A stretch of 64,000 nt of DNA from Patescibacteria group bacterium (GCA_041650895.1 JBAZKF010000001.1:273685-337684), one strand, 5' to 3'. Positions 41,291 through 63,819 are shown, counted from the stretch's first letter. Notes: generated from the letters alone by a model not told the origin. Numbers and translations are program-made.

Positions 41291-41324
41291 ATTATAAAAA
41301 TCTAAAATATAAGATTAAAAACCC

Positions 41325-43156: not shown

Positions 43157-43157
43157 G

Positions 43158-44820: not shown

Positions 44821-47732
<2,912 letters not shown>

Positions 47733-47734
47733 AA

Positions 47735-48310
47735 TTAACGGTAAACCTTGGAAGAAATAGTGGTTTGCAATCGCAGCTCCTTGCGATAGCGATCCGGTAC
47801 GTTCTTATTATAAATCGTCATAAGTAAAGTGATTTTCGGTTGATAAATATAATCATCGGTCGTAACATTGGCATAGGGATCATAAATCGGGCTAACAATG
47901 AACTGCAAATTACTTACGCCGACGTCAGAGGCATTTAAGGAAGCAAAAACAGTGCTGTCAGGGCTAATGGTGGTAATGAAGATCTTAGCCATAAAATCTT
48001 CCGGATCATAGGCTAATTGCCAAACCTCTCCGGCTTCATCCTTTTTGAATATCAATCTATCAACCTTACCATCAATAGGCGGCAAAGTTCTTTCATAATC
48101 CAACTCCCGACCGCGGACTTCCCGACCTATCTTTTCAATCATATACCGGCCGTCATTTTGCAATTTCTCCATGTTAGCGGTTTGCTGTTGAAGATTATTG
48201 ACATTAATAAAGATTCCACCAACCAAAACTGAAGTGATAGCAAACAAACCGGCAGTAATTAACATCTCTACCAGGGTAAATCCTTGATTACGAATTAGCT
48301 TTGATTTCAT
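47735..48310 (-). CDS. Type IV prepilin-like minor pilin
   Basis: 'NQGFTLVEMLITAGLFAI' class III signal (G|FTLVE). Confidence 0.7.
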   Translation of the reverse strand: MKSKLIRNQGFTLVEMLITAGLFAITSVLVGGIFINVNNLQQQTANMEKLQNDGRYMIEKIGREVRGRELDYERTLPPIDGKVDRLIFKKDEAGEVWQLAYDPEDFMAKIFITTISPDSTVFASLNASDVGVSNLQFIVSPIYDPYANVTTDDYIYQPKITLLMTIYNKNVPDRYRKELRLQTTISSKVYR

Positions 48311-48313
48311 AGA

Positions 48314-48925
48314 TTAACGCCAATTAAACAATTGATCTTCTACGGTAAGCTGGCGCGGTTGGCCGGAATAAGTCCAGATAACGCGGGAATTGATATTAAT
48401 ACCAATTTTAAGGGTATTATTAGGGCAACCGCCATCATCTGCTGGGGAGGAATAAGTCGTATCATCGCATTTTAAATCCTCAGGATTATTGTCGTTGCAA
48501 CAAATGGAAGTCAATGTGATAAGACGAGAAAAGAAAGAAGTATCATCCGATACTTGAGCTGAATAATAACCATCGGCATCATAAAACAGCTTACCGGACT
48601 GATTGGCTGTAACCTCAGACAAACCGCCCTTATAATCAACGGTATAAACGCCATCTCCCAGTCCCCTATCCCATAACCATAGATAAGTTTCATCAGGAAT
48701 ATTTCTAGCCATTCTCAACCAGTTACTATCACGAATGTTCTTAGTTATTTCCACTCCCTCACGCGCCAGATTAGCTGCCACGATACGCATTTCCGACTCT
48801 TTTACCGCATTAAAATTAACTAGAAATAAAAACCAAACGGAAAATAAACCGATAGTTATAACGGCGATGGAAACAATCAATTCAATCAGGCTTTGTCCTG
48901 ATTGGTTATCTCTTAATCTCATCAT
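48314..48925 (-). CDS. Pseudopilin-like protein (PilW/PilV-type)
   Basis: 'SGQSLIELIVSIAVITIGLF' prepilin-like N-terminus. Confidence 0.6.
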   Translation of the reverse strand: MMRLRDNQSGQSLIELIVSIAVITIGLFSVWFLFLVNFNAVKESEMRIVAANLAREGVEITKNIRDSNWLRMARNIPDETYLWLWDRGLGDGVYTVDYKGGLSEVTANQSGKLFYDADGYYSAQVSDDTSFFSRLITLTSICCNDNNPEDLKCDDTTYSSPADDGGCPNNTLKIGININSRVIWTYSGQPRQLTVEDQLFNWR

Positions 48926-48928
48926 AAA

Positions 48929-49441
48929 CTAAGGGCAATTGCCTTTAATTTCTTCAACTTTACCGGAGATACTATTAACTTGGACACAAAAAGCATTTGA
49001 GCTATTGCTGATTTCTATTTTAGCCTCGCTGGGATTGCCATCACCGGATAATGTCATACGCCCCCGAGGTACGGCAAAAGAAATTGACAATTGGTTACTA
49101 GCTTCATTTTTAATAGCAACTCTTACCCCCTCTAAATTCTTCTTGACTACTTGTTGATTCGGATCTCGGCCGCTGACTTCATAAAAACAATCAGCTTGGC
49201 AATTACTAATAGTGAAAACAAACTGTTGGGAATAAATATTACTCGGACCACTGCCGGCCAAAGAAAAATTACGCGCCTGGTCAATACCGACCAAAACCAA
49301 ATCCGCCTGCTCTTTCAGTAAGCGAATTTTCTCATCATTAGTAAAACTGACTACCATAAAAGAAGAAAGCATCGTAAAAATAGCGATGGCAATAAGTAAC
49401 TCAATTAAGGTGAAACCTTTCTGTAATTTATGTCGAGGCAT
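48929..49441 (-). CDS. Type IV prepilin-like minor pilin
   Basis: 'LQKGFTLIELLIAIAIFTML' class III signal peptide. Confidence 0.75.
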   Translation of the reverse strand: MPRHKLQKGFTLIELLIAIAIFTMLSSFMVVSFTNDEKIRLLKEQADLVLVGIDQARNFSLAGSGPSNIYSQQFVFTISNCQADCFYEVSGRDPNQQVVKKNLEGVRVAIKNEASNQLSISFAVPRGRMTLSGDGNPSEAKIEISNSSNAFCVQVNSISGKVEEIKGNCP

Positions 49442-49444
49442 ACA

Positions 49445-50188
49445 TTATAATAATAGACCGAGATACCAGTTGATTATTCTTTCGCCCCAAAATAGGGCGA
49501 CTAAAGTGCCCAAAGCCAGAAAAGTGCCGAAAGCGACGGGCGTTTTGGCTTTGGCTTTGCCTGAAATTAACAATACAACAGAGACTATAGCGCCAACAAT
49601 ATAAGCAACCAGCAGGGCGACTATTAGAAGCGGCCAGCCTAAAACCGCGCCCATTAAAGCACCCAAGCGCAGATCACCGCCGCCGATCCATCGGCCGGAA
49701 GAAACCAAGTATTGCAAACCAAAAAAACCAAAACCAACTAGAACAGCAAAAATTAAAAGCCACAAGTTACTGCCTAAAAGCAAACTAAAAATAAACAACA
49801 AAATAATAGCGGGAATAGTTACCTGATCAGGAATTAGTTGCCAACGCAAATCATAAACGAAAACGATAATCAGGATTGAAACCAATATTATGTCCCTAAG
49901 AAAAACTAACAACTGAGGATGGAGAATATAGGCTAAAACAAAAAGCAATCCGCCAGCTAATTCCACAATAGGGTATTGCCAGGAGATTGGTTGTCGGCAA
50001 TACCGGCAACGACCGCGCAACAAAATAAAACTTAACAGCGGCACTAAATCTTTTGGCTGTAATCCAGCTTGGCAGTGCGGGCACTTTGACCGGCCAAAAA
50101 CAATCGGTTCGCCGGAATGCAGACGCCAAACAACGACATTAAGGAAACTGCCGATGACTAACCCGATAATAAAAATAAATAAAATCAT
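49445..50188 (-). CDS. pilD: Prepilin peptidase (A24 family)
   Basis: N-terminal Zn 'CPHCQ...CRYCRQ', polytopic membrane, conserved Asp positions. Confidence 0.85.
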   Translation of the reverse strand: MILFIFIIGLVIGSFLNVVVWRLHSGEPIVFGRSKCPHCQAGLQPKDLVPLLSFILLRGRCRYCRQPISWQYPIVELAGGLLFVLAYILHPQLLVFLRDIILVSILIIVFVYDLRWQLIPDQVTIPAIILLFIFSLLLGSNLWLLIFAVLVGFGFFGLQYLVSSGRWIGGGDLRLGALMGAVLGWPLLIVALLVAYIVGAIVSVVLLISGKAKAKTPVAFGTFLALGTLVALFWGERIINWYLGLLL

Positions 50189-50568
50189 TTCACGCCGTTT
50201 TTAGTCCAAATATAACCGCCGGCCTTGAGACCGCCGATGCCACGTTCTAAATAAAAATTAATCTCATAATCGTTTTCACCCAAGGCGCCGACCAAATACT
50301 TATAATTGCCCCGGTTAACGGGATCAAGCGGAGTGGTTCGATTATTAAAGCACTGGCTGACAACCATGCCGGGATTACAATTGACAACTTGATAAGTATT
50401 ATACTTAGAAAAGTATTCGGCCATAATATCTTGCCAGACTTTTAAACCTTTAAGACGTTCAAAGTCCCGCGCTTGACCGCTATAAAACCAAACAGCCAAA
50501 CCGGTAAAAACCAGCCCCAAGATTAGCAACATGGAATAAACAATGATTTTATAAGATAATCGTCGCAT
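50185..50568 (-). CDS. Membrane-anchored hypothetical protein in the pilus gene cluster
   Basis: Single N-terminal TM; start overlaps the pilD stop. Confidence 0.45.
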   Translation of the reverse strand: MRRLSYKIIVYSMLLILGLVFTGLAVWFYSGQARDFERLKGLKVWQDIMAEYFSKYNTYQVVNCNPGMVVSQCFNNRTTPLDPVNRGNYKYLVGALGENDYEINFYLERGIGGLKAGGYIWTKNGVK

Positions 50569-50651
50569 AAGTTATATTTACCCTAATATTATACCATAAT
50601 TAAAGAGACAAAAAAACCCTCCCGTTGAATCGGGAGGGTTTAATTCAAATC

Positions 50652-51062
50652 TTAATTAGCATTACATTGTCCGGCTGCAGCAGGCACGGCTGAATTCAAT
50701 CCTCTAAAGCCATTAGTATCAGCGCAGAAATAGGAGTCGCTGGTACATAGTTGAGCATAATAAGCAACAACAGATGCCGTAGTGGAGGGCGAAGCGGTCC
50801 AACTGACCTTACCGGCGGCAGTGCAAGGATAAGTGCCCAATTTTGCGATAACAGAATCCCTATAAGTATCAGAGTCAACGCTTTCGCCGTTAGCTCTGGC
50901 AATTTCTGTCTGAGTAGAAGCAGTAGCAACATTAGATTGAACCTTAGCGTCATTAGCTTTGTTTCTAGCGTCCTGTAAATAAACAATAGCGACCGAGGAC
51001 AAGATGCCGATAATGGCAATAACCACTAATAATTCAATTAAAGTAAAACCTTTCTTATTCAT
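50652..51062 (-). CDS. pilA: Major type IV pilin
   Basis: 'MNKKGFTLIELLVVIAIIGILSSVAIVYL' canonical T4a pilin N-terminus, C-terminal Cys pair. Confidence 0.85.
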   Translation of the reverse strand: MNKKGFTLIELLVVIAIIGILSSVAIVYLQDARNKANDAKVQSNVATASTQTEIARANGESVDSDTYRDSVIAKLGTYPCTAAGKVSWTASPSTTASVVAYYAQLCTSDSYFCADTNGFRGLNSAVPAAAGQCNAN

Positions 51063-51092
51063 AGGTTTATATTTTATATTTAACGTTTTAAT

Positions 51093-51108
51093 TTCACTCG
51101 CGAGTGAA
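51093..51108. promoter_or_regulatory. Perfect 16-bp palindrome TTCACTCGCGAGTGAA about 30 bp upstream of the pilA start (candidate operator)
   Basis: Read directly; flanked by imperfect extension ttaattt/aaattaa. Confidence 0.35.
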
Positions 51109-51249
51109 TAAAATTAAACTGCTTCTAAGCTTTTTCCTCGACCTTTTCCCTTAATAAATGGGTTATCTAGCTTATCCACAGCTATTTTATAACATAATTA
51201 TAGCACAAAAAATGATAAAAAAACAGGAAATACACGCTATTAGTAAAAC

Positions 51250-52461
51250 CTAGAAGGCCGACGACAATTGCCACATCGGCAACATAACAGCAATAACGAA
51301 CAGAGCCACGGCGATTCCCAGGACAATCATAATGATCGGCTCAATCAAGTTAGACAAATTCCGAACTGAATTGTCTATCTCTTTAGAATAAAAATCTGAG
51401 GCTTTATCCAATACTTCTTCCAACTTTCCCGACTCCTCGCCGATACTGATCATATTAGCCACGATTTGGGGTAGATAAGGGCTAGCGGCCAAACTTTCAG
51501 AAATCTGATTACCTTCATTAACGCTCGCAATCGCATCATTAATCATTTCTTCAAACAATTTATTATCAACAACCTCCTTAACCACAGCCAATCCTTGGGC
51601 GATAGGAACGCCGCCTTTAATAAGCGTGGCGAAGCTTTGAGTAAAACGCACGATGTAAATATCTTTAAAAATAGCACCAAAAATTGGAATCTTAAGTTTT
51701 ACCCAATCCAAGAAACGTCTACCCTCCGGCGTCTGCCGGCCAACAAAAAATATGATCAATAAACCGATAGTTAAAAGTACCACCAACCACCAAAAATTCC
51801 TTAAAAAATTAGCCAGATTCATCATTAATCTGGTGATTAACGGAATTTGAGCGCCTGACTCCACCAACATTTTAGTAATACTGGGAATAACAAAAGCCAC
51901 GACAATAAAACCCACCACACCCAGGACCAAGACAATCATAGCTGGATAAATCATCGCACCTCTAACCTTGGATTCCAAATCATAATCTTTCTCTTTTTGG
52001 TCAGCCAAATAATTCATTACTTCAGACAATCGTCCCGAAGTTTCACCGGAACGCATGATGTTGGCATAAAATTTAGTAAAAACGTCTGGATAAATTTCCA
52101 AAGCTGAGGAAAAGCTTGACCCACCCTCCACTTCGTCTGCCACTTTGTCAATTACGTTACGTAAGTAGTCATTCTTGGTTTGTCGGACCAAAATACGCAA
52201 ACCCCGAACTAATGGAATGTTGGCTTCCACCATTACCGCCAACTGACGAAAGAATATGACTAAATCTTTACTACTAACTCGTTTAAAAAATAAAAATTTC
52301 TGCCAATACCAAACACTTAAAGTGGCTTGAGGACGAATATCAATAATGGCCAACTTTTTATCCAACAAAAAATTGGCTACGGCTTCGGCAGAAACCGCAT
52401 CCATGGCTGCTTCAACGATATTGCCTCGGCGATCCTTAGTCTTATACTTGTATATCGGCAT
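51250..52461 (-). CDS. pilC: Type IV pilus platform protein PilC (GspF family)
   Basis: Two GspF repeats, three TM segments, about 400 aa. Confidence 0.9.
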   Translation of the reverse strand: MPIYKYKTKDRRGNIVEAAMDAVSAEAVANFLLDKKLAIIDIRPQATLSVWYWQKFLFFKRVSSKDLVIFFRQLAVMVEANIPLVRGLRILVRQTKNDYLRNVIDKVADEVEGGSSFSSALEIYPDVFTKFYANIMRSGETSGRLSEVMNYLADQKEKDYDLESKVRGAMIYPAMIVLVLGVVGFIVVAFVIPSITKMLVESGAQIPLITRLMMNLANFLRNFWWLVVLLTIGLLIIFFVGRQTPEGRRFLDWVKLKIPIFGAIFKDIYIVRFTQSFATLIKGGVPIAQGLAVVKEVVDNKLFEEMINDAIASVNEGNQISESLAASPYLPQIVANMISIGEESGKLEEVLDKASDFYSKEIDNSVRNLSNLIEPIIMIVLGIAVALFVIAVMLPMWQLSSAF

Positions 52462-52473
52462 GATTGATAAAAA

Positions 52474-53538
52474 TTAATTTTTCCCCAAACCTTTAGGATC
52501 CGGAGAATGTTCCTGCGCCTCCTCGTAAGTAATCAGATTAGCCCTTAACGCCTCGCCCAAGGCCTGATTAAAAGATATCATACCCTCACGGCGCGAGGTG
52601 GCAATAATATTGTCTAATTGGTTAAGATTGCCGCTGGCAATAGTCGCTCTAACTGTGTCATTAACCAAAAGAATTTCGCAAACCGGGACTACTCCACCGC
52701 CGATTTTGGGTAAGAGCTTCTGACAAACCACAGCTTTCAAGGCGCCGGACAATAAATCACGGATACGATCCTGATCAAAAGCCGGAAAATAATCAAGAAT
52801 TGCAGTTAACGACCTGGCGCAAGTATCAGCGGCCATAGTAGTAATCACTAAAGCGCTACCACGAGCTATTTCTAAAACCGGCGGAATAATAGAGGCGCTG
52901 TTTAACTGTTCTAAGAACAATACATCGCCGCTTTCTTCTTGAAAATATTTTAGGGCATCAGCATAACTATTAGTATCCTGTCCCACTTGACGTTGCTCAA
53001 TAACGCTTTTTTTATTGGCAAAAATGTATTCAATCGGATCTTCAATAGTGATAATATACTTCTTGCGACTGACATTTATCTCTTCGATCATAGAGGCTGC
53101 GGTAGAAGTACGACCAGAACCAAAGGCGCCGGAAACAATAACCAATCCTCGATTTAACTTAATTAGTTCCTTGACTGCCGCCGGCATACCCAACTGACTT
53201 AAAGTAACAATCGTTACTGGCACATAACGAAAAGTAGAAGACAAAAAACCCTTCTGATAGAACAAATTTATCTTAAAACGAAGATTCTTATCAAAGTTAT
53301 ACGTTAATATTATTTCCCTCTCCTTGGCCAGCTTTTCCCGCTGTAGTGGCGTTAGTAATGCCTCAGCCAGTTTAATCATGAATTCTGCCGTAATAACACC
53401 CTTATCCTCAAGATAACGCAATTCACCGTTAACTTTTATAATCGGAAAATGGCCGACGGTAAAATGCCAATCGGAAGCGCTAGCTGTTATTCCTTCTGTT
53501 AATACCTGCCTTAAAAACAAATCCTGACTGGTATCCAT
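52474..53538 (-). CDS. pilT: PilT-like ATPase with degenerate catalytic motifs (likely pseudo-ATPase)
   Basis: PilT/PilU architecture with Asp-box 'IEDPIEY'. Walker A is 'GAFGSGRTST' (Lys to Arg), Walker B region is 'DVLFLEQLNS' where GEMRD is expected, and His-box is 'ITTMAAD' with no His. Confidence 0.7.
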   Translation of the reverse strand: MDTSQDLFLRQVLTEGITASASDWHFTVGHFPIIKVNGELRYLEDKGVITAEFMIKLAEALLTPLQREKLAKEREIILTYNFDKNLRFKINLFYQKGFLSSTFRYVPVTIVTLSQLGMPAAVKELIKLNRGLVIVSGAFGSGRTSTAASMIEEINVSRKKYIITIEDPIEYIFANKKSVIEQRQVGQDTNSYADALKYFQEESGDVLFLEQLNSASIIPPVLEIARGSALVITTMAADTCARSLTAILDYFPAFDQDRIRDLLSGALKAVVCQKLLPKIGGGVVPVCEILLVNDTVRATIASGNLNQLDNIIATSRREGMISFNQALGEALRANLITYEEAQEHSPDPKGLGKN

Positions 53539-53540
53539 AG

Positions 53541-53918
53541 TTAAGCAATTAACTTTTTAATCTTCTCCACTACTTCGGACGGCATAAAGTGCGCCTTAAT
53601 CAAATAATCTTTGGCACCCAACTTTAATCCCTTTTCCACATCAGATTTTTGGCTTAGGTTAGTCAAAAGAATAACCGGGATTTTCTCCAGTTTACTATCA
53701 GCTTTAAGCGACTTAAGGATGTCAAATCCGCTCATCTTGGGCAAAACCAAATCCAATAAAATTATGTCCGGCGAACCTTTCTTGGCTGTTTCCCAGCCCC
53801 TTTCTCCATCATAAGCCACAGTTACTTTAAATCCTTCCAGGGCAAATTTGGTTTTATACAAATCAGCCAGAAAAACATCGTCCTCCACAATAAGAATGTT
53901 TATTTTCTTGTCTTTCAT
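53541..53918 (-). CDS. Single-domain CheY-like response regulator (PilH/PilG-like) inside the pilus operon
   Basis: Receiver residues D11/D12, D54 (ILLDLV), T82, K104 all present. Confidence 0.85.
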   Translation of the reverse strand: MKDKKINILIVEDDVFLADLYKTKFALEGFKVTVAYDGERGWETAKKGSPDIILLDLVLPKMSGFDILKSLKADSKLEKIPVILLTNLSQKSDVEKGLKLGAKDYLIKAHFMPSEVVEKIKKLIA

Positions 53919-53949
53919 AAAATCAATTTAGTTGATAATTAAATTACAT

Positions 53950-55713
53950 TTATGTTACTTGCATCACTTCTTCGATCGTGGTCAAGCCCATCATTGATTT
54001 CATTATACCGTCCTGCATTAAGGTGACAAAATTCTGTTTCTTTAACTCCGCCATAACCACCTCGTTAGAAAAATTCTCTTTGGCGATAATATTTCGCAAT
54101 TCCGGAGTAATAGAGATAATTTCACTAATCACTGTCCGACCGGCAAAACCGCTCTTACCGCAAAGATCACAGCCAACTGCCCGATAGAACTTGACTTGTG
54201 GCACATACTGCTTAAGCAATTCTGGCGGAATCTGTTTAATTTCGCCTTCTACTTGTTTAAGTAATGGCCCAGGCAACGACACTTCTTGACGGCAACTGGG
54301 GCAGACTTTCCTGACTAAACGTTGCGCCATGATTAAATTAAGCGTGGAAGACAGCAAAAATGGCTCGGCTTTCATATCAATCATGCGTGGAATAGCGCCC
54401 CAAGCATTGTTAGTATGCAAAGTAGAAAAAACCAAGTGCCCGGTCAACCCGGCATGAATGACTAATTCGGCTGTTTCACTGTCACGAATTTCTCCCACCA
54501 TGATAATATTGGGGTCTTGACGCAAAATCGCCCTCAAACCGGAAGCAAAAGTAAAACCAACATCCGGATTTATTTGAGATTGATTAATGCCGGCGATAGA
54601 ATATTCTATCGGATCCTCCAAGGTAGTAACATTACTGTTTTCTGTTTTGATTTGGTTCAAAATGGAATATAAGGTTGTCGTTTTGCCTGAACCGGTCGGA
54701 CCGGTTAAAAGTATCAGACCAAACGGCTTGTTGGCATTCTGGTTTAAAATTTCTATTTCATTATCAAGAAAACCAAGCTGGGCCAAATTAGGAACGCCGG
54801 CGGAAGTGTCCAAAACGCGAATTACCACTTTCTCTGAATTAAGCATGGGCAGAACGGAAATACGCAAATCCACTTCCTGACCATCTATTTGCGAACGAAT
54901 ACGCCCATCTTGAGGTAGGCGCGTTTCATCCAGTTTTAAATTAGCCATGACCTTGATACGCGAAACTACGGCATTATGAATATAAGCCGGCAAAGTCAGC
55001 GAGGTGTGCAAGATACCATCCACGCGATAACGCACCCGGCTTTCATTACGACCCGGCTCAATATGAATATCTGAAGCGTTGCCCTCAATGCCATGACGAA
55101 TAATAACGGAGACGATTTTGGCTACGGGGGCGGCTTTTATTTTTTCTTCCAGGGCGGCTCCACCTTCCAATACCACTCCCTCCTCTTTCTCCGCATATTT
55201 CTCTTCCGCCGATTGTAAGGCGGTGCCTATTTCCTTAGTAAAACCGCTGTAACTTTTAATAAAACGACGAAAATCTTCTAATAAGATTACAAAGTAACTA
55301 ACCTGAAAACCGGAAGTCTTAGACCAAAATTCAATCGCTTCATTAGCCATAAAGTCACCTGGATCAACCAAACCGACGCTGACTTTCTTGCCTTCCTGTG
55401 CAAATGCAATCGCTTTATAATTTTCTGCCACTTTCTGAGATAGCAAATTAAGAGTTTCCGACTTAATCTGGCTGGTTGCCAGGTCAGCCACCGGTAAATT
55501 AAATACCTCGCCTTTTATCTTAAGCAGATCATTACGATTAAAGACATTCCGATCCATTAATTCCTCTTCAATCATCTTTTTACCCCTATTCGCCGCAATC
55601 AAAACTTCTTCTAAGATAGACAGATTGACCAGATTATGGCTGGCCAGATAATTCTTCATTTTTTCGTTGTATTGGATATCGGGCATAAATTTTATTCCCC
55701 CAATTCGCGACAC
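53950..55713 (-). CDS. pilB: Type IV pilus assembly ATPase PilB (GspE family)
   Basis: Walker A 'GPTGSGKTTT', Asp-box 'LEDPIEY', Walker B 'IIMVGEIRD', His-box 'FSTLHTN', C-terminal Zn 'CPSCR...GCDLCG'. Confidence 0.92.
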   Translation of the reverse strand: MSRIGGIKFMPDIQYNEKMKNYLASHNLVNLSILEEVLIAANRGKKMIEEELMDRNVFNRNDLLKIKGEVFNLPVADLATSQIKSETLNLLSQKVAENYKAIAFAQEGKKVSVGLVDPGDFMANEAIEFWSKTSGFQVSYFVILLEDFRRFIKSYSGFTKEIGTALQSAEEKYAEKEEGVVLEGGAALEEKIKAAPVAKIVSVIIRHGIEGNASDIHIEPGRNESRVRYRVDGILHTSLTLPAYIHNAVVSRIKVMANLKLDETRLPQDGRIRSQIDGQEVDLRISVLPMLNSEKVVIRVLDTSAGVPNLAQLGFLDNEIEILNQNANKPFGLILLTGPTGSGKTTTLYSILNQIKTENSNVTTLEDPIEYSIAGINQSQINPDVGFTFASGLRAILRQDPNIIMVGEIRDSETAELVIHAGLTGHLVFSTLHTNNAWGAIPRMIDMKAEPFLLSSTLNLIMAQRLVRKVCPSCRQEVSLPGPLLKQVEGEIKQIPPELLKQYVPQVKFYRAVGCDLCGKSGFAGRTVISEIISITPELRNIIAKENFSNEVVMAELKKQNFVTLMQDGIMKSMMGLTTIEEVMQVT

Positions 55714-56021
55714 TGCGCGGTTGAAGTATTAACAATAGCATTAACATCGGCTGTTTTGCGCTCAAACGGATTACCGCGACCGGAGCTTAATTCGACTCCG
55801 ACGATCGGCCAATCACTGCATTGATTCAACTGTTTAACATCGGGAAAAATGTCGCGATTTATTTTAACGAATTGACTGCCCAAATTAACCACATTCTGTT
55901 CTTGCAATAAAGAAAAGGGCCAAAATTTCTGCCAATAAGCCAAGGCGCCATAAAGAATAATGATCAAAATGACCAACAAAACATACAGGCGCGTAGATGA
56001 TTTTTTTTCTATCTTATCCAT
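55692..56021 (-). CDS. Small membrane-anchored pilus-cluster protein (PilP-like position)
   Basis: Single TM, about 110 aa, located between pilO and pilB. Confidence 0.4.
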   Translation of the reverse strand: MDKIEKKSSTRLYVLLVILIIILYGALAYWQKFWPFSLLQEQNVVNLGSQFVKINRDIFPDVKQLNQCSDWPIVGVELSSGRGNPFERKTADVNAIVNTSTAQCRELGE

Positions 56022-56024
56022 AAA

Positions 56025-56603
56025 TTAAGGCCGATAATAAGTCACCAGGGAAATATTATAAGATTTACCGTCATCAGTAACGCTAATGGAATTGATATCG
56101 GCAACAATCGCTGATTTTTCTAAAAGACTCAAAAACAGTTTAAAAGAATCATAATTACCGCCGACTAATTGTAACTTGATTAGCATTTTTTGTACGCCGG
56201 CCGCCGTAATCGGAGTATTAGGTAAGGCACTAACGCTGTCACTAAAAGACAAGCTGCTAGCCACAAATCCGGCGCGCTTAGCCAAATTGGTAAAATGCAC
56301 GATCATACTGGGGGTATCCGGCGCCGAGGGCAAAACTAAAGACAGCAAGCGTTTCTCTTCCGTTGTCAATTCAACTATTTGAGAAGCGTTCTTTTGCGAC
56401 TCATCTAATTGAAAATTAGCAATAGAAATTTTTTCTTGCAAACCGGCTAATATTTGCCGGCTATCATTATAATTCGCCAATTGTTTGTTTAGAACCAATA
56501 GATAACCAAAAATAACCACCAAAACAGCGATTGAAAACAGCCAAAAACGCTCATACTTACTCCAAATATCAATAATAGTTTTTTTATAGCTTAAATCGGG
56601 CAT
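56025..56603 (-). CDS. pilO: PilO-like pilus assembly protein
   Basis: N-terminal TM plus coiled coil plus C-terminal ferredoxin-like domain; follows pilN. Confidence 0.6.
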   Translation of the reverse strand: MPDLSYKKTIIDIWSKYERFWLFSIAVLVVIFGYLLVLNKQLANYNDSRQILAGLQEKISIANFQLDESQKNASQIVELTTEEKRLLSLVLPSAPDTPSMIVHFTNLAKRAGFVASSLSFSDSVSALPNTPITAAGVQKMLIKLQLVGGNYDSFKLFLSLLEKSAIVADINSISVTDDGKSYNISLVTYYRP

Positions 56604-56606
56604 AAA

Positions 56607-57887
56607 TTATTTAATCAAACGACGGAAAACACCGTCAGCTAGAGTTAGACGTAAAAGAAAATCAACACCAGTAACTCCAGCCTTGGGATCGGTAGAAACC
56701 TGCATGCTAGCAGTTCTGGCATCTTTGACAAAGTCATTAGCGCTCTTTAATGCTACAAGTTGCCGAGCTAATGTTTCATAGTTATCAGCTGTAGCAGGCA
56801 AAGAAATAAGTCCGGCGATGTCAGCCTTAAATTCCTTAAAATATACTCCGTCCAAAGTATATTTTTCCAATAATACAAAAAACTTACTCCAATAAATACG
56901 ATTATCTAATATTTTTTTAAGGGTAATAACGCGATTAGCCGTATCATTATTTATTCTAGCTCTTTCGTTATAATCACCGATGCTCTTCTGTAATTGGGTC
57001 AGTTCATTACGGTTGGTTGATATTTTCTGACTGATATTGCCCTGTAACCAGCTCATGCCCGAATAACATAAAAAAATCACTACTGCCGGTAAAATCATTG
57101 CCATAACTATCCGCAACCAATTAATGCCTCCCGCCTTCCCTTTTAATAACTCTGATGGTATTAGATTAATGTAAGTATGGCGATTATGTGTGATTGGCTC
57201 CGTCGTATGGTAACCGCCTGATTTGTCATGTTTATGCTTTTTATCCTTCTTGACTGGTTCAATCTTGCTGTCGGCAACTTTATCCATCCGCTCTTTAATC
57301 GGCTGAATCGAGGCGCTTTCTAATTCTGCTTTTTCTTCCTTAGGTTTAACCGATACTAAAGGAGCTGATGCTAAAGGCGCTGTTGTCTCCAATGTTCTAG
57401 CCAAATTAATCTTGGGCTCAGATTTATTGGAGCGCGAAAACAAAGAAGCTAATATTCTCCACCAACTATTTTTCTGGGTCTGTAGTAGATTATCTGGTGA
57501 TGACGCAACGACTCGGGAGACGGACCGGGATTCCGGTTGCCCCTGCTTTTTATAATTAACTGACTCTGTCAATCCCCTTGATGCCTGTCGCTGAAAATTA
57601 ATTTGGCCGACTTCTCCGCCAACCGGCAAATTAACCGGCGCTGAAGATTTGAAGGTTGGCAAAGCAATTGCCTGATTGCCACTGATCGGCACCTGAGAAC
57701 GAGATGAAGAAACAATTGGCGAAACCGGCTTACCGAACATCCTCTTTAACCAACCAGACTTTTCCAATTTTGTCTCCTCCGGATTAGTCAGATTAATATC
57801 AAAGCTTAGCGTTCGATTGGATCGCCGCCTTTGCTCTTCGTTTTCTTTTTTCCTTAACTCTTCCGGAAGCAAATTAACATCTGACAT
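56607..57887 (-). CDS. pilN: PilN-like protein with an unusually long Ser/Pro/Lys-rich cytoplasmic N-terminal extension
   Basis: 'MSDVNLLPEEL' (PilM-binding INLLP motif) at the N-terminus, TM about 245 aa later, C-terminal PilN domain. Confidence 0.6.
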   Translation of the reverse strand: MSDVNLLPEELRKKENEEQRRRSNRTLSFDINLTNPEETKLEKSGWLKRMFGKPVSPIVSSSRSQVPISGNQAIALPTFKSSAPVNLPVGGEVGQINFQRQASRGLTESVNYKKQGQPESRSVSRVVASSPDNLLQTQKNSWWRILASLFSRSNKSEPKINLARTLETTAPLASAPLVSVKPKEEKAELESASIQPIKERMDKVADSKIEPVKKDKKHKHDKSGGYHTTEPITHNRHTYINLIPSELLKGKAGGINWLRIVMAMILPAVVIFLCYSGMSWLQGNISQKISTNRNELTQLQKSIGDYNERARINNDTANRVITLKKILDNRIYWSKFFVLLEKYTLDGVYFKEFKADIAGLISLPATADNYETLARQLVALKSANDFVKDARTASMQVSTDPKAGVTGVDFLLRLTLADGVFRRLIK

Positions 57888-57928
57888 GTACTAATATTAT
57901 AACATTTTTTATTACTACACGCTAATGA

Positions 57929-59035
57929 TTATTCTATTTCTCGCATAGCCAAACCGACAGGAACAGCAAAACGTGCGCCGACGCGGTCTAAAATAGGCTT
58001 CAAATCAACCGGATAAACTACTCGCGCCCAAGGATCACCAATAACCGTGTTAATATTAAAGGTGTTTGACAAATAACCCGGTAAATGGCCCAAAAGAGCC
58101 GTACCGCCAGTCAAAATCAACTTATCAATTTTGGTATTATTGCTATCCTGATATAAATTAACAGTATAGCTGATTTCATTTAAAATTGGAGCAAAAGATT
58201 TTTCCACAGTTTGAGGCAAAGAGTTTTCGCTTGTTTCCGAATCTAATGACAAATCCTGCTTAAATTGTTCAGCACGATCTAAATTGACATTTAAAGCCAT
58301 AGAAATAGCCTTAGTCAAAGCTTGGCCGCCCAATTCCAAAGAACGACTCAGTACTGGCACTCCCTTGGAAACCACGACTAAACTCGAAGTTGCCGCTCCC
58401 ATATCAATAATCATTACCGTTGATTTATCATCACCCAAAAGCGAACGAACCAAGGCAAAACTCTCAGTCTCCAGACTAAGTAAGGTCAAACCACACTTAG
58501 CAAAAATATCAATGTATTTCTTAATCAACTGTTTACTGGCTCCAGTTAGAAGCACTCGAACATTCTTTTTAGGTTTAGAAAATATTTTTTTCAAAGGATT
58601 AGTTTCTTGGCTTATTTCGGGCAATTTATCCGTATCACCGCCAACCTCAAATTCCTCTACGATCTTCCAATCCAAAATTATTTCTTCCAGTGGCATAGGA
58701 ATAATCTTTTTAGCTTCCCAACTTATTGCCGCAGCTAAATCTTTCTTAGATAATGAAGGCAACGTCAGGATAGAAGTAAAGACAGAAAAATTAGGCAAGG
58801 CGGCTACGGCCTTGTTAGCTGTTACTTTTGATTTTTTACAAACTTCCTTAAGGATAGCAGCAGTTTCTTCAACATCAGAGATTATTCCCGATTCCGAGAT
58901 GTTAGTCGGGCTTTTTTCTGTGAAACCGTAAGTAACCAAACGCGGCCGACCTGAATAGTTAGCTAATTCCACGACCTTAATTGAGGAAGATCCCAGATCG
59001 ACACCGAGATAATTGTTTTTCTTTGATCCAAACAT
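57929..59035 (-). CDS. pilM: PilM actin-like ATPase
   Basis: 'YLGVDLGSSSIKVVEL' and a second 'IIDMGAATSSLVVV' actin-fold phosphate loop. Confidence 0.85.
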   Translation of the reverse strand: MFGSKKNNYLGVDLGSSSIKVVELANYSGRPRLVTYGFTEKSPTNISESGIISDVEETAAILKEVCKKSKVTANKAVAALPNFSVFTSILTLPSLSKKDLAAAISWEAKKIIPMPLEEIILDWKIVEEFEVGGDTDKLPEISQETNPLKKIFSKPKKNVRVLLTGASKQLIKKYIDIFAKCGLTLLSLETESFALVRSLLGDDKSTVMIIDMGAATSSLVVVSKGVPVLSRSLELGGQALTKAISMALNVNLDRAEQFKQDLSLDSETSENSLPQTVEKSFAPILNEISYTVNLYQDSNNTKIDKLILTGGTALLGHLPGYLSNTFNINTVIGDPWARVVYPVDLKPILDRVGARFAVPVGLAMREIE

Positions 59036-59080: not shown

Positions 59081-60763
59081 TCAATACTGATAATCACGAA
59101 TTACAGGCAAATTTTCCGCCAAAGCTTTAAGTCCGGGTGGCGGATTAGCGATTAAACGTCCATCATAAATTATCCGTTCCGATCCTTGAATTAATTTAGA
59201 ATAAGTACGCCGGAAGTCAAAAGCTTTAGCGATAATCAAACCCAGTACCACCAGCTGATCCTGGCTTTCGTTAGAGAAAAAGACGCCACAACTATTGGCT
59301 ACATATTTAGGATAATCAACAGATGACCCGCTTTCCGCTTGACATAAGATATTGTCCTTGCCTAAAAGCAAGTAAGCTCCGACAATCTGGGTTACTGCTG
59401 GATCAACTATGACATCTCCCTTAACTACCCAAGCCACCGAGCCGAGTTTTTTTAAGTCATCCGGCAAAGAACCATTGCTATAACCAAAATTGCTTTTAAT
59501 ATTCAAATCGCCATTAACCACTATCAAGCCATTGCCTCTTTGGCCATCACCGCCGTTAGTAATAACGAATCCGTTATCAATGGTCAGATTACCATTAATA
59601 ACATACACGCTATTATTAAAAACTTCGCTTTTTTTCCAAGTCGTTGCATTGTTATAGATATTCAAAACTTGATCATATTTGTTATAGCGAGTATTGCCAA
59701 TTCTCTTGTATTCCGTGGTCAAGCCGACCAAATCAATCTGTCCCAAAGCATTCCTATAAACACCATTCTGAAACGTCGGGTAAGCAATGGCAACGTCAGA
59801 AAAAAACGGCTGTTGGCAATTAGTGGAAGTAAAACTGTAGACATCCTTAGCAAAAATACAGTAAGTGGCGTTACGACCCTTTTCAAACCTTTGCCTGATA
59901 TAATTAGAACCATAAACTGAACCAAACTGCGTTTGCAACCAAGGATAAACAATCTCGGCCGCGCCATTAAATTCCACCCAGCCGGCGCCAACCAAATTGG
60001 TAACATCACCGTTCCAACCCCAACCCAGAATTGTACCGTTAGCTCCATTGACTACCGTACCGTATTTTTTACAGCCGCCGGTGCAACCACTGTTACAAAC
60101 AATACGACTGGCAGTGCCTAAGGGATTAGTTGAAGTCTGACAGCCGTTGCAATTAAAACAGATTGAGCCGCTACCGGCGCTAGTTGAAGTAATATTGGCG
60201 TCAGGAATATTCGCCCCATCAACCCTAACACGGGCAAAACAAGTACGACAATTTAATGCTCCATCTTCATTATTGGTATTGCAATCATAACAGGCTTGAC
60301 CGACGCCGTTAGCCAAGGAACCACTATCCACAGTACTACCCAAATGCAAATAACCGTCACCGCCTAAAGAAACAACCCCGGCCCAACCGGTAATCTTCTT
60401 GGATATTGGATCATAACTGGCATTCCAACCATCATCAAACGATGGAGTACCGCCGATACCGGAACTAGAGCAAGTAAAACCGAAACAAACCCAACCCACA
60501 TATTCTGACCACCCATAACCGACTAAATTATTATTGCTATCCAACTGGACTTTATACATCTTTGCGTCTCCACTTTCTGGAAACTCCGGATTCTGGTAAT
60601 TCAATGATATCCAACCGTAATTATCGCTCCAAAGCCAGCCGGCTATGTCGTAGGCCACATCTGTTTCCTGCATAAAAGCCAACCGACAAGCCAACACTCC
60701 GGTCAAAATAATAATGGCCGTAAACATGACGAGTGATCCGTATTTAAAAACATGATTAGTCAT
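59081..60763 (-). CDS. Secreted Cys- and Trp-rich protein with GW-type repeats (pilus-associated or adhesin candidate)
   Basis: N-terminal signal/TM; recurring 'GW..S..YGWIS', 'GYGWSEYVGWV', 'GWGWNGD...GAGWVEF'; many Cys; start overlaps the stop of the upstream gene (TAATG). Confidence 0.5.
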   Translation of the reverse strand: MTNHVFKYGSLVMFTAIIILTGVLACRLAFMQETDVAYDIAGWLWSDNYGWISLNYQNPEFPESGDAKMYKVQLDSNNNLVGYGWSEYVGWVCFGFTCSSSGIGGTPSFDDGWNASYDPISKKITGWAGVVSLGGDGYLHLGSTVDSGSLANGVGQACYDCNTNNEDGALNCRTCFARVRVDGANIPDANITSTSAGSGSICFNCNGCQTSTNPLGTASRIVCNSGCTGGCKKYGTVVNGANGTILGWGWNGDVTNLVGAGWVEFNGAAEIVYPWLQTQFGSVYGSNYIRQRFEKGRNATYCIFAKDVYSFTSTNCQQPFFSDVAIAYPTFQNGVYRNALGQIDLVGLTTEYKRIGNTRYNKYDQVLNIYNNATTWKKSEVFNNSVYVINGNLTIDNGFVITNGGDGQRGNGLIVVNGDLNIKSNFGYSNGSLPDDLKKLGSVAWVVKGDVIVDPAVTQIVGAYLLLGKDNILCQAESGSSVDYPKYVANSCGVFFSNESQDQLVVLGLIIAKAFDFRRTYSKLIQGSERIIYDGRLIANPPPGLKALAENLPVIRDYQY

Positions 60764-63480
60764 TATAGATTATCAAGTTGTTTCCAAGAGCAAACGGAGG
60801 CTGTCGTTCTAATGCAACCGCAAAAATGACCGGCATTACCAGTGGCGATATACTTAATACTCCCTTCTTGGGTAGAACAAGTACAAGTACCAGAACAAGA
60901 GTTGCCACTACTGGTTCTAAAACGAACCATGCCGTTTACATCCAACTTTTGCGTCGGCGCTACAGTGCCTATCCCTACATTGCCTCCGGTTTGCAATATC
61001 ATTTGATCAGCATTGTTTTCTCTGAAATATATATTTCTGCCGGAAGGACGATTAACATAAAGATTAGTATTATCAGGCGATGACAATAAGTTATAAGTGC
61101 CTTGAGAAATTTCAGTTCCTGATAATTGCAAAGCCATCCAGGCGCCGCTTTGCGAGCTGTCCGGCCACGGACCTATAACCGCATATCCCCCTGCCTTTTC
61201 ATTAATAGAGCGTCCAACCATCAAACCCGTCCCACCCCTAAAAACACCTGCCCAACCATTATTAGTATCAGAGCTACCCGAGATTGCTGTTCCGTTTTCC
61301 GTTCGTCCTTGTATTCCAGTCCCTCCTGGACTGTTGCCATATACGCCGATACCTTCACTGCCAGTAGATATGCCCAACACTCCTGCTGTATACCCCTCAG
61401 CTATAACGCCAAAAGAAAACTCCAACCCTGATGTGATATGGCTGTTTTTAACATAAAGCGTAGCACCATCGCCCTGAGTGATACCATAAGGTGATTTATT
61501 ATCGCCTACAACGCTTAAGGTGGATATTGGACTGCTGGTTCCAATACCTATCTTTCCATTGGACAAGAAAGTCACCACGCTATTTGAAGGGGTATTATCA
61601 CCGGTCGCCAAAACCAAGTTGGCGGAATTAGCCGGACGATACAACCACCATAATTCTTGAGAGCTTGTAACCGTGCCAACAGACCACTTCAAACCGTTAG
61701 AATAATTAGTAGTATTAGTGTTAATATCAACAAAAACATCTTTATTGACAATTGCCGGACGTGAAGTAACTATTGAATGGTTAGAAACAACCAGTGATGA
61801 TAAGGGCGCCCAAGTTCCGATTCCGACGTAAGCATTTTCACTCCTAATTTTCATCGCCGGTATGCTATCGCCCCAGCCATGCACAGTAGAAGGATCGGTT
61901 CTACCGACATAGAAATCAAACCCTCTCGCGGCCTCATTTGTTAATGATGCGGTGTACCCTATGGCCCCAGCCTCATCTCTATAATTGCCAGCTCCCATAA
62001 CACTAAATTCAATACCTGAATCACCACTGGGATTCCAAGCGCCAGCCCCGCTTTCCGTAATGGCCATTGCCGAAGCCGGATAATAGGTCGGCCCAGAACC
62101 TATATGTAATCGTTTCTGCGGATCAGTATTATTTATACCCACCATCCCCGCTTGATTAATGGTTGCCCTATCTACTCCACCTCCCCAAATATTCAAACTA
62201 TCTGCTGTGCCAGGATAACCACTTATTCCAGTATTGCGAGTATATATAGACCAATGCTCGTTACCAATGCCATATTGCAACTGTAACTCCGGGTTATTAA
62301 CCTTGTCAGTAATGCGCACTCTAGCTGTCTTAGCGCTAACAGGAGCTGCTACTTCTAGCATTTCAGCGGGGACCTCAACACCAATGCCCACCATAGCATT
62401 AAAAGCTGTTGTGCCAAAATCAATAACAGACAAAAGCGGTATACTACCACTGGAATCCACTATCTTCATAGCATAACCCAACAAATTAGCCGATTTAATT
62501 AAAAAACGATGATTTGCCAACGTAGCCGTACCAACAGCCACCCGGCCATTAGCATTATCAATAATCAAAGCTGAAGTACCGGTAACATTAGTGCCATTAG
62601 CGGGATAATAAGCGGCTTGACCGGCCAAACCATAATTGACTCCACCACCAGTACTACCTCCTGTGCCACAAGCTGACGCCGTAGCAGAAATCTGACCGGT
62701 AGCGCTGGCCTGCAAACAACGACTCCCACTACCAGATAGACTGCTTGCCGTTATTGCACCGTTGACTTGTAAACCAGTAGAACTGACTACGCCAGCCACA
62801 TCCAATCTAGTAAGAGGATTATTTATGCCAATACCAATATTACCGTTCTGCTTGATAGCCAGACGATCATTGCCACCGCCCCAAATCCTAAAAGCATCTT
62901 CAGTCTGATTATTATAAATACCCCAGTGACCATTAACATCACTAGAATACTGCAATTGAATCTCGGGATTTTTGGTATCATCAAAAACTCGCAACCAGGT
63001 GGCAGTAACAACGCTACTAGGTTTTTTTACCACTAAAGTAGCAATAGGAGCTGAGTCATTTATACCGACATTACCGTTATCAAAAATAGAAGAATTACCT
63101 AGTGTGTTAGTGCCGGTAAATTTAGATACATAATTAACCGTACCACTAATTCCTCCGGATGATGGTAAAGTAGAAGTACAAACCAGTTTAGTCCCACTCC
63201 AACCAACCAAGGAAGCAATACTGCAGTTATCAGGAGTAACTGTTAATGTATTCCATCTGCCAGAAATGACATCGCCGCTAAAAAGTGTTGACTGATTAAG
63301 TGGCGCCGCAACATTGCCATTAGGCGGATCATTTGTAGGACCAGTCCAGGCTAAAACTGGGGTAAATAAGACTAAAAATAAAGACAGGCCGCTCACGACT
63401 GAAATCGCGACCCCAAAAAACTTAATGGGCTGTTTTAACAGCATATTTTTGTCACCTTTAATTTTGCTTATGGAGAACAA
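60763..63480 (-). CDS. Giant secreted protein (905 aa) with six or more Gly-rich 'N(V/I)GIGT..P...L.V.G' repeats of the kind found in tail-fibre domain proteins
   Basis: Signal anchor; repeats 'VGINDSAPIATLVV', 'NGNIGIGINNPLTRLDVAG', 'AGMVGINNTDPQKRLHIG', 'YVGIGTWAPLSSLVVS', 'NGKIGIGTSSPISTLSVVG', 'GGNVGIGTVAPTQKLDVNG'; first gene of the pilus operon. Confidence 0.55.
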   Translation of the reverse strand: MFSISKIKGDKNMLLKQPIKFFGVAISVVSGLSLFLVLFTPVLAWTGPTNDPPNGNVAAPLNQSTLFSGDVISGRWNTLTVTPDNCSIASLVGWSGTKLVCTSTLPSSGGISGTVNYVSKFTGTNTLGNSSIFDNGNVGINDSAPIATLVVKKPSSVVTATWLRVFDDTKNPEIQLQYSSDVNGHWGIYNNQTEDAFRIWGGGNDRLAIKQNGNIGIGINNPLTRLDVAGVVSSTGLQVNGAITASSLSGSGSRCLQASATGQISATASACGTGGSTGGGVNYGLAGQAAYYPANGTNVTGTSALIIDNANGRVAVGTATLANHRFLIKSANLLGYAMKIVDSSGSIPLLSVIDFGTTAFNAMVGIGVEVPAEMLEVAAPVSAKTARVRITDKVNNPELQLQYGIGNEHWSIYTRNTGISGYPGTADSLNIWGGGVDRATINQAGMVGINNTDPQKRLHIGSGPTYYPASAMAITESGAGAWNPSGDSGIEFSVMGAGNYRDEAGAIGYTASLTNEAARGFDFYVGRTDPSTVHGWGDSIPAMKIRSENAYVGIGTWAPLSSLVVSNHSIVTSRPAIVNKDVFVDINTNTTNYSNGLKWSVGTVTSSQELWWLYRPANSANLVLATGDNTPSNSVVTFLSNGKIGIGTSSPISTLSVVGDNKSPYGITQGDGATLYVKNSHITSGLEFSFGVIAEGYTAGVLGISTGSEGIGVYGNSPGGTGIQGRTENGTAISGSSDTNNGWAGVFRGGTGLMVGRSINEKAGGYAVIGPWPDSSQSGAWMALQLSGTEISQGTYNLLSSPDNTNLYVNRPSGRNIYFRENNADQMILQTGGNVGIGTVAPTQKLDVNGMVRFRTSSGNSCSGTCTCSTQEGSIKYIATGNAGHFCGCIRTTASVCSWKQLDNL

Positions 63481-63819
63481 ATCCCCTTGTTGTTATAAAG
63501 TTCCCCATGGTTCTCAATTATTTATGAATCCCTGATAAACTTGACTTACTCTTAATTACCAGAGCTGGTCGTAAATTTTCAAGAATTGCATAATAATAAA
63601 GCTGGCTGTTTTATAACTTATCCACAAGCATTAACTATAATTAATTATACAACATTTTGACCATTTTGATAAATCATGATTATTGATTACAACATAAAAC
63701 GTCTATTTAATGCAATATCTTCATAACTGATTATTACAAGAAAGATGCCAGTGAATAATATTTTGCGACTATAAACAGGAAATGGTATAATAAAGATGTA
63801 ATTCTTTATGCCTTTACTA

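Follow-up and report, generated by a model that had tools for sequence, protein, structure and literature searches.

Patescibacteria are estimated to account for a quarter or more of bacterial diversity, and all cultivated members live attached to other microbes, a lifestyle for which type IV pili (T4P) are needed (PMC11623550, PMC10633639). What these pili bind, and by means of which proteins, is little known outside a few Saccharibacteria. A survey of protein families in the Candidate Phyla Radiation (CPR) lists PilB, PilT, PilC, PilM, PilN, PilO, PilD and pilins only as its T4P proteins (PMC6744442). The present analysis concerns two adjacent genes, here termed A and B, at the head of a T4P operon in a 64,000-nucleotide stretch of a Patescibacteria genome (GCA_041650895.1, JBAZKF010000001.1:273685-337684; the whole stretch is called the window, and positions are counted from its first letter). 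Their products are two concrete candidates for proteins with which such pili, or the cells bearing them, bind a host.

The closest described systems come from other phyla. In the mosaic adhesive trimer (MAT) fibres of Bdellovibrio bacteriovorus, a signal peptide leads straight into a conserved beta-rich N-terminal domain of ~130 aa, which is homologous among MATs. This is followed by a beta-helix shaft and by tips that can be exchanged, with an S74 chaperone or none, and the trimer is intertwined over the entire fibre. MATs are located on the surface of the predator, and prey glycan binding was found in one case (Caulton et al. 2024, PMC10769870). ComZ of Thermus is without the usual pilin motifs, carries a solenoid which superposes on the ice-binding protein FfIBP, and was placed at the pilus tip as a DNA receptor (PMC6561018). 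An ice-binding-like solenoid was also described in all cyanobacterial PilX minor pilins, where it was proposed as a substitute for the PilY1-type tip plug (preprint, 2026; 10.64898/2026.02.12.705559).

A chromosomal T4P operon of about 17 kb, on the minus strand of a Buchananbacteria-related Patescibacteria genome, begins with A and B (Table 1). A preliminary description of this DNA had reported two open reading frames (ORFs) at this place, co-directional with the pilM operon and directly upstream of it, and both are indeed found there. It had treated them as equivalent; the data set them apart, A being a hypervariable fibre and B a conserved component of the operon. In the explanation that we favour, to which we would give a little less than an even chance, B would be a non-pilin, pilus-associated adhesin or tip factor, a counterpart of PilY1, ComZ and PilX, and A a trimeric surface fibre recognising host ligands.

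The linkage of B to pilM is near-invariant. Loci were collected from one genome per GTDB species with B-derived peptide patterns only (79 loci) and by exact-protein look-ups (5 loci), and the pilus genes around B were located by tblastn with the pilus proteins of the window. In 82 of these 84 loci pilM lies downstream of B on the same strand, and the gap is 18-577 nt in nearly all of them; larger offsets occur in L004 (one intervening gene) and L046 (partial B match). Of the remaining two loci, L038 lacks DNA on the downstream side, and in L084 pilB/pilT comes directly next. Two long family members obtained by profile search, with Laminin_G_3 or FG-GAP heads (L085, L086), are also encoded directly upstream of pilM.

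Conservation of the operon was compared at loci whose B is ~42% identical to B of the window. Identity to the window's proteins was 60-66% for PilM, 57-63% for PilB, ~50-55% for PilC, 26-36% for PilN and 25-36% for PilO. Thus, B behaves as a conserved extracytoplasmic component and not as a freely diversifying adhesin, the variable N-terminus of the family being the exception. These data bear on an alternative, unlikely in our judgement, according to which B is not an adhesin but belongs to the structure of the pilus machine outside the membrane; as a collar, a conduit or an element of alignment, it would guide the fibre across the wall or S-layer in cells devoid of PilQ. PilQ is lacking in CPR genomes (PMC6744442), B is fixed at the head of the pilM-pilN-pilO alignment genes, and its conservation is intermediate between that of the cytoplasmic parts and that of PilN and PilO. 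However, the lectin, PKD, discoidin and FG-GAP heads found in the B family are typical of adhesins, the N-termini resemble cleavable Sec signals and no further anchor is visible, a lone beta-solenoid is not known to form channels or rings, and the closest fold relatives of B are tip proteins.

B contains 17 Cys (3.0%), 13 Trp (2.3%) and 9 Gly-Trp (GW) dipeptides; composition shuffles of B gave a mean of 1.6 GW and a maximum of 6, so the richness in Cys and GW that had been noted earlier is genuine. The conserved cysteines are C93, C98, C158, C161, C172, C175, C202, C205, C208, C223 and C231. More than 100 full-length homologues (38-47% identity), all unnamed, were found in Patescibacteria (Buchananbacteria, Falkowbacteria, Uhrbacteria), and the B profile, searched against 1.84 billion cluster representatives, matched 9,663 at E<=1e-3, 5,088 at E<=1e-10 and 616 at E<=1e-30. 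When homologues were sought once more, with the C-terminal profile as query, the outcome was 28 proteins, all of them unnamed and "hypothetical". The B family is very large, and no library searched has a name for it.

The common core of the family is the C-terminal ~320 residues, which form the end of proteins 450-1,900 aa long; the invariant positions of this domain, which ends in GSExIIYDGRxxNPPPG, are all present in B. The N-terminal additions vary and include Laminin_G_3, DUF2341, FG-GAP, PKD, F5_F8_type_C (discoidin) and DUF4215. In one clade (L063, L067, L068, L072, L078, L081) the halves of B are naturally split: upstream of pilM, at about 1-9 kb of these loci, the GW module has a gene of its own, an ORF of 477-557 aa, and an adjacent ORF of 1,405-1,541 aa ends in the solenoid. 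Pfam, NCBIfam and PHROGs gave no usable match to B, and no Pfam match to the PilY1 beta-propeller (PF05567) was seen in it. The ice-binding domain DUF3494 was likewise not matched in Pfam at E<=1 by B, by 62 family members or by 17 C-terminal domains. Sub-threshold matches to Pfam DUF7305 were obtained with 6 of the 62 members and 3 of the 17 C-terminal domains (best E=2.5e-4); B of the window itself gave no DUF7305 match, the gathering threshold was not reached, and no paper in the literature searched mentions the domain.

Both proteins appear to be secreted, as had been proposed, since their N-termini are of secretion type. Across the B family, 214 of 232 members have a hydrophobic N-terminal segment and 222 of 232 an AxA-like site; with a positive n-region, a hydrophobic core and the AxA-like site, these N-termini are predicted to be Sec-type. 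The prepilin motif of the G|FTLIE type was found in none of the 232 members and N_methyl is not matched in B, although the true pilins of the same operon carry the motif; B is therefore not a pilin. A ComZ-like pilin identity was ruled out for B on the same grounds. The N_methyl prepilin signature of Pfam was not matched by A either, and as both proteins are without a prepilin signal or a pilin module, neither can be a pilin-type tip subunit.

The AlphaFold2 (AF2) model of B is confident (pLDDT 86.8, pTM 0.80) and consists of a helix at residues 2-29, a beta-rich half with the GW hairpins and the Cys cluster, and a C-terminal beta-helix. In a Foldseek search of the PDB the first-ranked match was Thermus ComZ (6qvi_B, E=7e-4, probability 0.66), and next came FfIBP, a protein that binds ice (4nu2, probability 0.99, target-normalised TM-score 0.50). 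These are the same two proteins that the authors of the ComZ structure describe as structurally related (PMC6561018). The C-terminal domain of B is thus predicted to be a triangular beta-solenoid of the ice-binding/ComZ type. Many beta-helix proteins degrade polysaccharides, and the C-terminal part of B has invariant charged residues (R519, E529, D534, R536); the solenoid could on these grounds be an enzyme, such as a glycan lyase or hydrolase, by which the surface of the host, or the wall of the cell itself, is opened where the pilus acts. We regard this as highly unlikely, for the triangular solenoid is described as a binding module in the ComZ work (PMC6561018), no enzyme family was matched by B at E<=1, and the invariant residues appear to lie in the terminal cap and tail and not along a groove.

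A is built around a shaft of repeated GN(V/I)GIGTxxPxxxLxV motifs. The pattern GN[VI]GI[GN]xxxPxxxLx[VI] occurs in 5 strict and 8 relaxed copies, at residues 126, 203, 302, 352, 435, 540, 632 and 823; composition shuffles of A gave no strict copy in 2,000 trials and a relaxed mean of 0.02, so the motif is far above chance. The claim of six or more NxGIGT-type repeats therefore holds. So does that of a likeness to tail fibres: two PHROG tail-fibre hidden Markov models, 9942 (E=2.1e-13) and 18345 (E=3.1e-10), each match four stretches of A, and 43 viral contigs of IMG/VR encode relatives of residues ~100-230. The only sequence match in the PDB is Bd2133 of Bdellovibrio (8ond_A, phmmer E=2e-6), which aligns with A residues 101-256, two motif units, in an entry that covers only residues 662-1031 of Bd2133. 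Pfam and NCBIfam returned nothing for A, and the endosialidase-chaperone assignment fails, Peptidase_S74 (PF13884) being absent from A at E<=1 in Pfam. The motif belongs to the fibre shaft and not to a chaperone, and A is related to the shafts of phage tail fibres and MAT proteins.

As the shaft is shared with phage proteins, the two genes could also be left over from a prophage tail module and lie beside the pilus genes by chance. None of 2.9 million viral contigs contains a B-type sequence, however, and comparison of the B fold with viral structures brought no significant match; the linkage of B to pilM is kept across distant genomes, and no phage genes were found in the rest of the window, which is housekeeping (gyrB, PBP2, aminoacyl-tRNA synthetases, mreB, glycosyltransferases). 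This origin, rejected on the synteny and the absence of B from viral contigs, has a negligible probability.

The relatives of A show a mosaic pattern. Only three are clear, with 75%, 73% and 36% identity. A and P0002 are 82-98% identical over most of residues 1-650 and 14-46% identical over residues 700-893, and the difference from P0003 is confined to the last 43 residues, where identity is 14%. A tail of the WKQLDN type recurs in P0004, P0081 and an 878-aa protein of L002, unrelated fibres among them. Such a profile is the pattern that would be expected of a receptor-binding tip, and A reads as a fast-evolving, variable fibre adhesin. A glycine-rich segment of short period (GVLGISTGSEGIGVYGNSPGGTGIQGRTENGTAISGSS) at residues ~680-745 (within 60766-61350, minus strand) has no Pfam match and lies in the region diverging from P0002; it resembles the head repeats of trimeric autotransporter adhesins.

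No orthologues of A were found beyond two genomes, though PilM and PilB are still 43-66% identical in more distant loci. In about 30 loci of Buchananbacteria-like clades, a secreted protein of 770-2,019 aa is encoded just upstream of B. In many of these proteins a signal peptide precedes W-x-E-P-x-x-x-P-P-x-G-N, and GxVGIG motifs occur several times; apart from this they are non-orthologous to A. More distant clades have no gene for a large secreted protein at this position. Thus, the association with T4P loci, which the preliminary description had named as the test of its proposal, is very strongly upheld for B and not for A, which is unconserved with T4P loci and whose slot is taken by non-orthologous large proteins.

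The arrangement of the two genes raises the alternative that A and B form a surface fibre-plus-anchor pair beside the pilus, the conserved N-terminal module of A being anchored to B. The A stop and B start codons overlap in TAATG, the large secreted protein directly upstream of B in the ~30 related loci often has the W-x-E-P...PP-x-G-N module, and in some genomes (L086) B has a long N-terminal extension and a separate upstream fibre gene is absent. On the other side, an A-like neighbour is missing at many B loci, and a fibre with the same N-terminal module is encoded far from any T4P or B gene (L087). The overlap, from which translational coupling had been proposed, is present here but is not conserved: in the closest relatives, L006 and L007, the genes are separated by spacers of 11 and 16 nt and have their own ribosome-binding sites, so that TAATG is specific to the present genome. 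We consider a fibre-plus-anchor pair distinctly unlikely.

The preferred explanation, in which B serves the pilus and A is a separate host-recognising fibre, can be put as follows. A would be exported by the Sec pathway and most likely form a trimeric fibre of the phage-tail-fibre kind, like a Bdellovibrio MAT, kept at the cell surface by its conserved N-terminal module; its variable C-terminal part, swapped among strains, would recognise host-surface ligands. B would also be exported. Its C-terminal solenoid may associate with the pilus, probably by way of a priming complex of the operon's own minor pilins, and its GW/Cys-rich N-terminal half may be the ligand-binding head, which relatives replace or extend with lectin-type domains. 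B could then act as a tip plug or an adhesin in the way of PilY1, ComZ or PilX.

Several results weigh against this explanation. The B gene adjoins pilM and not the minor-pilin cluster, where pilY1 and comZ sit. The global TM-score of B with ComZ is just 0.17 for the match of probability 0.66, and PDB sequence searches with the B profile and the C-terminal profile gave chance-level matches only. B, at 42% identity, is better conserved than PilN and PilO, which fits a machine part as well as a docking module. For A, tblastn against the 50,697 records of the 'phages' collection (deposited phage genomes) gave no match. Its AF2 monomer model is poor (pLDDT 43.4, pTM 0.27) and unusable, so that a trimer of A is deduced from homology. 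Finally, P0075 (L087 8001-10067) combines the W-x-E-P...PP-x-G-N module with a true Peptidase_S74 domain amid unrelated genes. As it sits away from any T4P locus, the A-type N-terminal module is not exclusive to T4P, and the idea that the module is a B-specific docking tag is weakened. Judging from P0075, Patescibacteria appear to hold both S74 and non-S74 fibre classes, like the two MAT classes of Bdellovibrio.

The earlier proposal of pilus-tip adhesins is therefore partly supported for B and unsupported for A, which only the position of its gene ties to the tip; a pilin-type tip subunit is excluded for both. A role as host-attachment proteins is reasonable for attachment in general, but not as a tip role for A. 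A bolder proposal, possible but in our view doubtful, is that B founds a kind of core accessory not described before in Patescibacteria T4P, a Sec-exported non-pilin whose solenoid caps or docks on the tip complex in place of PilY1 and whose interchangeable N-terminal heads (GW/Cys module, lectins, FG-GAP) set host specificity. In Buchananbacteria-type operons B might also dock the upstream phage-like fibre, so that the pilus would bear a receptor-binding device of the tail-fibre type. If B is a tip factor or adhesin, it would provide a sequence marker for the prediction of host range from metagenomes and a defined experimental target, and ice-binding-like solenoids would be a general pilus-tip module in phyla without PilY1, extending an emerging pattern. 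The family size and the strength of the linkage make B a good experimental lead, its mechanism being inferred.

The features of the locus are collected in Table 1. For A, the ATG is the likelier start, as it is preceded by the Shine-Dalgarno-like AAAGGTGA, is the start of P0001 (893 aa, from a Patescibacteria metagenome-assembled genome, 100% identical to A) and is also used in P0002-P0004. The genes follow closely on one another: A and B overlap by 1 nt, B and pilM are 45 nt apart, and onward to pilB the gaps are 3-41 nt. The pilM-N-O-B-T-C-A gene list given for the operon is present as described but left out the response regulator, pilD and the minor pilins. A promoter-like pair of hexamers upstream of A is a consensus match with no evidence of function.

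Table 1. Coordinates of genes A and B, their parts, and the remaining features of the T4P operon in the window
Feature	Position	Strand	Product or content	Basis or remark
Gene A, longest ORF	60763..63480	-	905 aa from TTG	
Gene A, likelier start (ATG at 63444)	60763..63444	-	893 aa, secreted tail-fibre-like (predicted)	
A residues 1-32	63349..63444	-	putative Sec-type signal peptide (MLLKQPIKFFGVAISVVSGLSLFLVLFTPVLA, then W)	read from sequence; kept in orthologues
A residues 33-100	63145..63348	-	N-terminal module W-x-G/E-P-T-x-x-P-P-x-G-N-V-x-x-P-L-N	common to otherwise unrelated large proteins upstream of B homologues; also P0075
A residues 101-840	60925..63144	-	fibre shaft, eight GN(V/I)GIGTxxPxxxLxV motifs	motif counts, PHROG, Bd2133, viral matches
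A residues 841-893	60766..60924	-	Cys-rich C-terminal tail ending WKQLDNL, putative swapped tip module	only 14% identical to the tails of the orthologues with 75% and 73% identity
TAATG (cTAATGa)	60761..60765	-	A stop and B start have one base in common	
Gene B	59081..60763	-	560 aa	large unannotated pilM-linked Patescibacteria family
B residues 1-30	60674..60763	-	hydrophobic N-terminal helix, putative Sec signal peptide or signal anchor	AF2 helix residues 2-29; without prepilin motif
B residues 38-290	59894..60652	-	beta-rich half, GWxWSxNxGW(I/V) hairpin repeats and conserved Cys cluster	sequence, AF2
B residues 291-560	59084..59893	-	predicted C-terminal beta-solenoid and tail GSExIIYDGRxxANPPPGL, family-defining	profile core positions 245-571, Foldseek
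Remainder of T4P operon	46821..59035	-		Pfam matches, position, N-terminal sequences
pilM	57929-59035	-		Pfam PilM_2, 6e-44
pilN-like	56607-57887	-	426 aa	position and tblastn to same slot in related loci
pilO-like	56025-56603	-	192 aa	position and tblastn to same slot in related loci
109-aa ORF	55692-56021	-	109 aa	between pilO-like and pilB
pilB	53950-55713	-		Pfam T2SSE, 2e-124
Response regulator	53541-53918	-	receiver domain, stand-alone	between pilB and pilT
pilT	52474-53538	-		Pfam
pilC	51250-52461	-		Pfam
pilA	50652-51062	-		Pfam pilin
127-aa ORF	50185-50568	-	127 aa	between pilA and pilD
pilD	49445-50188	-		Pfam
Minor pilins (three)	48929-49441, 48314-48925, 47735-48310	-		N_methyl pilins; 170, 203 and 191 aa
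303-aa PilX-like protein	46821-47732	-	303 aa	after the three minor pilins
Promoter-like -35/-10	63644..63672	-	TTATCA, 17 nt, TATAAT	consensus scan only; AT-rich region upstream of A

Some further observations were made on the operon and its surroundings. The response regulator occupies the same position between pilB and pilT in most related loci and looks like a fixed part of the operon. The pilB ORF as listed begins with GTG and overlaps the 109-aa ORF by 22 nt (55686-55713, minus strand); an in-frame ATG nine codons in (MPDIQY...) would abolish the overlap and is probably the real start. The 303-aa protein, after which ligA comes next, has a hydrophobic N-terminus resembling those of PilX/GspK-type tip pilins and no Pfam match, and is a candidate partner of B. 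Just downstream of ligA, a DUF4012 protein (656 aa) and three family-2 glycosyltransferases (39320-44654, minus strand) may represent a surface-polysaccharide cluster adjoining the pilus operon. At the operon head, a divergent block of LemA, Peptidase_M48 and ClpB recurs upstream of the fibre/B genes in L001, L002, L005 and L086; the divergent gene of the window, from 63819 on the plus strand, has an unrelated-looking N-terminus (MTDHESAMDEATIANK...) and is cut by the window end. An intergenic LOOT RNA (Rfam RF03000) lies at 781-901 on the minus strand, a full-length match of 77.1 bits against a gathering threshold of 46.4. Among the loci compared, many contigs with a Patescibacteria-type operon bear odd titles (L008, L011, L014, L019, L035 and others, one of them a complete 886-kb chromosome), and two further operon-bearing contigs go under the names Vicinamibacterales and Acutalibacteraceae; all this looks like mislabelling or mis-binning.

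Among known fibres, A comes closest to a MAT of the Bd2133 class (8ond, PMC10769870). Both have a signal peptide, a conserved N-terminal module, shaft units of the GNVGIGTxxPxxKLxV type and an exchangeable C-terminal tip, both are without an S74 chaperone, and both belong to bacteria that live on other bacteria and use T4P. A differs in that it comes from another phylum and is encoded inside a T4P operon, and in that its tip is a short Cys-rich tail and not a defined sandwich or lectin domain. With the S74 phage fibres and tailspikes (PF13884) A has in common the shaft motif, which also occurs in PHROG tail-fibre families and viral contigs; PF13884 is present in ~25 of the 120 A homologues listed. 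Unlike these proteins, A is without an S74 domain, gave no match in the 'phages' collection and is encoded in a chromosomal operon. It would be a tip-swapping fibre of the kind which phages and Bdellovibrio use to recognise the surfaces of their prey.

For B, the comparison is with tip proteins of T4P. B and ComZ (6qvi) or cyanobacterial PilX are alike in the predicted triangular ice-binding-like solenoid and in being encoded with T4P genes, and both solenoid relatives are assigned to the pilus tip; B and ComZ are also similar in length (560 and 554 aa) and in the hydrophobic N-terminal helix without a classical pilin motif. In ComZ and PilX, however, the solenoid sits between the two final strands of a GspK-like domain, inserted in a pilin fold which enters the fibre, whereas in B it appears to be C-terminal and is followed by a conserved 40-aa tail, and no pilin helix would remain after cleavage, given the Sec-type N-termini of the family. 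The other half of B consists of GW hairpins and a Cys cluster, its gene is upstream of pilM and not among the minor pilins, and there is no sequence similarity. With the ice-binding proteins (DUF3494, FfIBP 4nu2) only the C-terminal fold is common; B has no match to their Pfam family, an extra GW/Cys-rich half and a place in a pilus operon. PilY1/PilC and B are both large, T4P-linked proteins of non-pilin type, apparently Sec-exported, in which the adhesive N-terminal region varies and the C-terminal domain is conserved. This domain is a beta-propeller (PF05567) in PilY1, whose gene lies in a minor-pilin operon, and a predicted beta-solenoid in B.

No B-like gene is mentioned in the Saccharibacteria T4P studies, and the B family, which travels with pilM across many lineages, is undescribed in the libraries and papers searched. 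No named family includes B, and A belongs to one only by its tail-fibre shaft. It adds to the tail-fibre/MAT kind a new member, from a phylum and a genomic setting that are both new. In B, the gene position and the GW/Cys module are without description in the papers searched, the solenoid is as in ComZ and PilX, and the export and architecture are as in PilY1.

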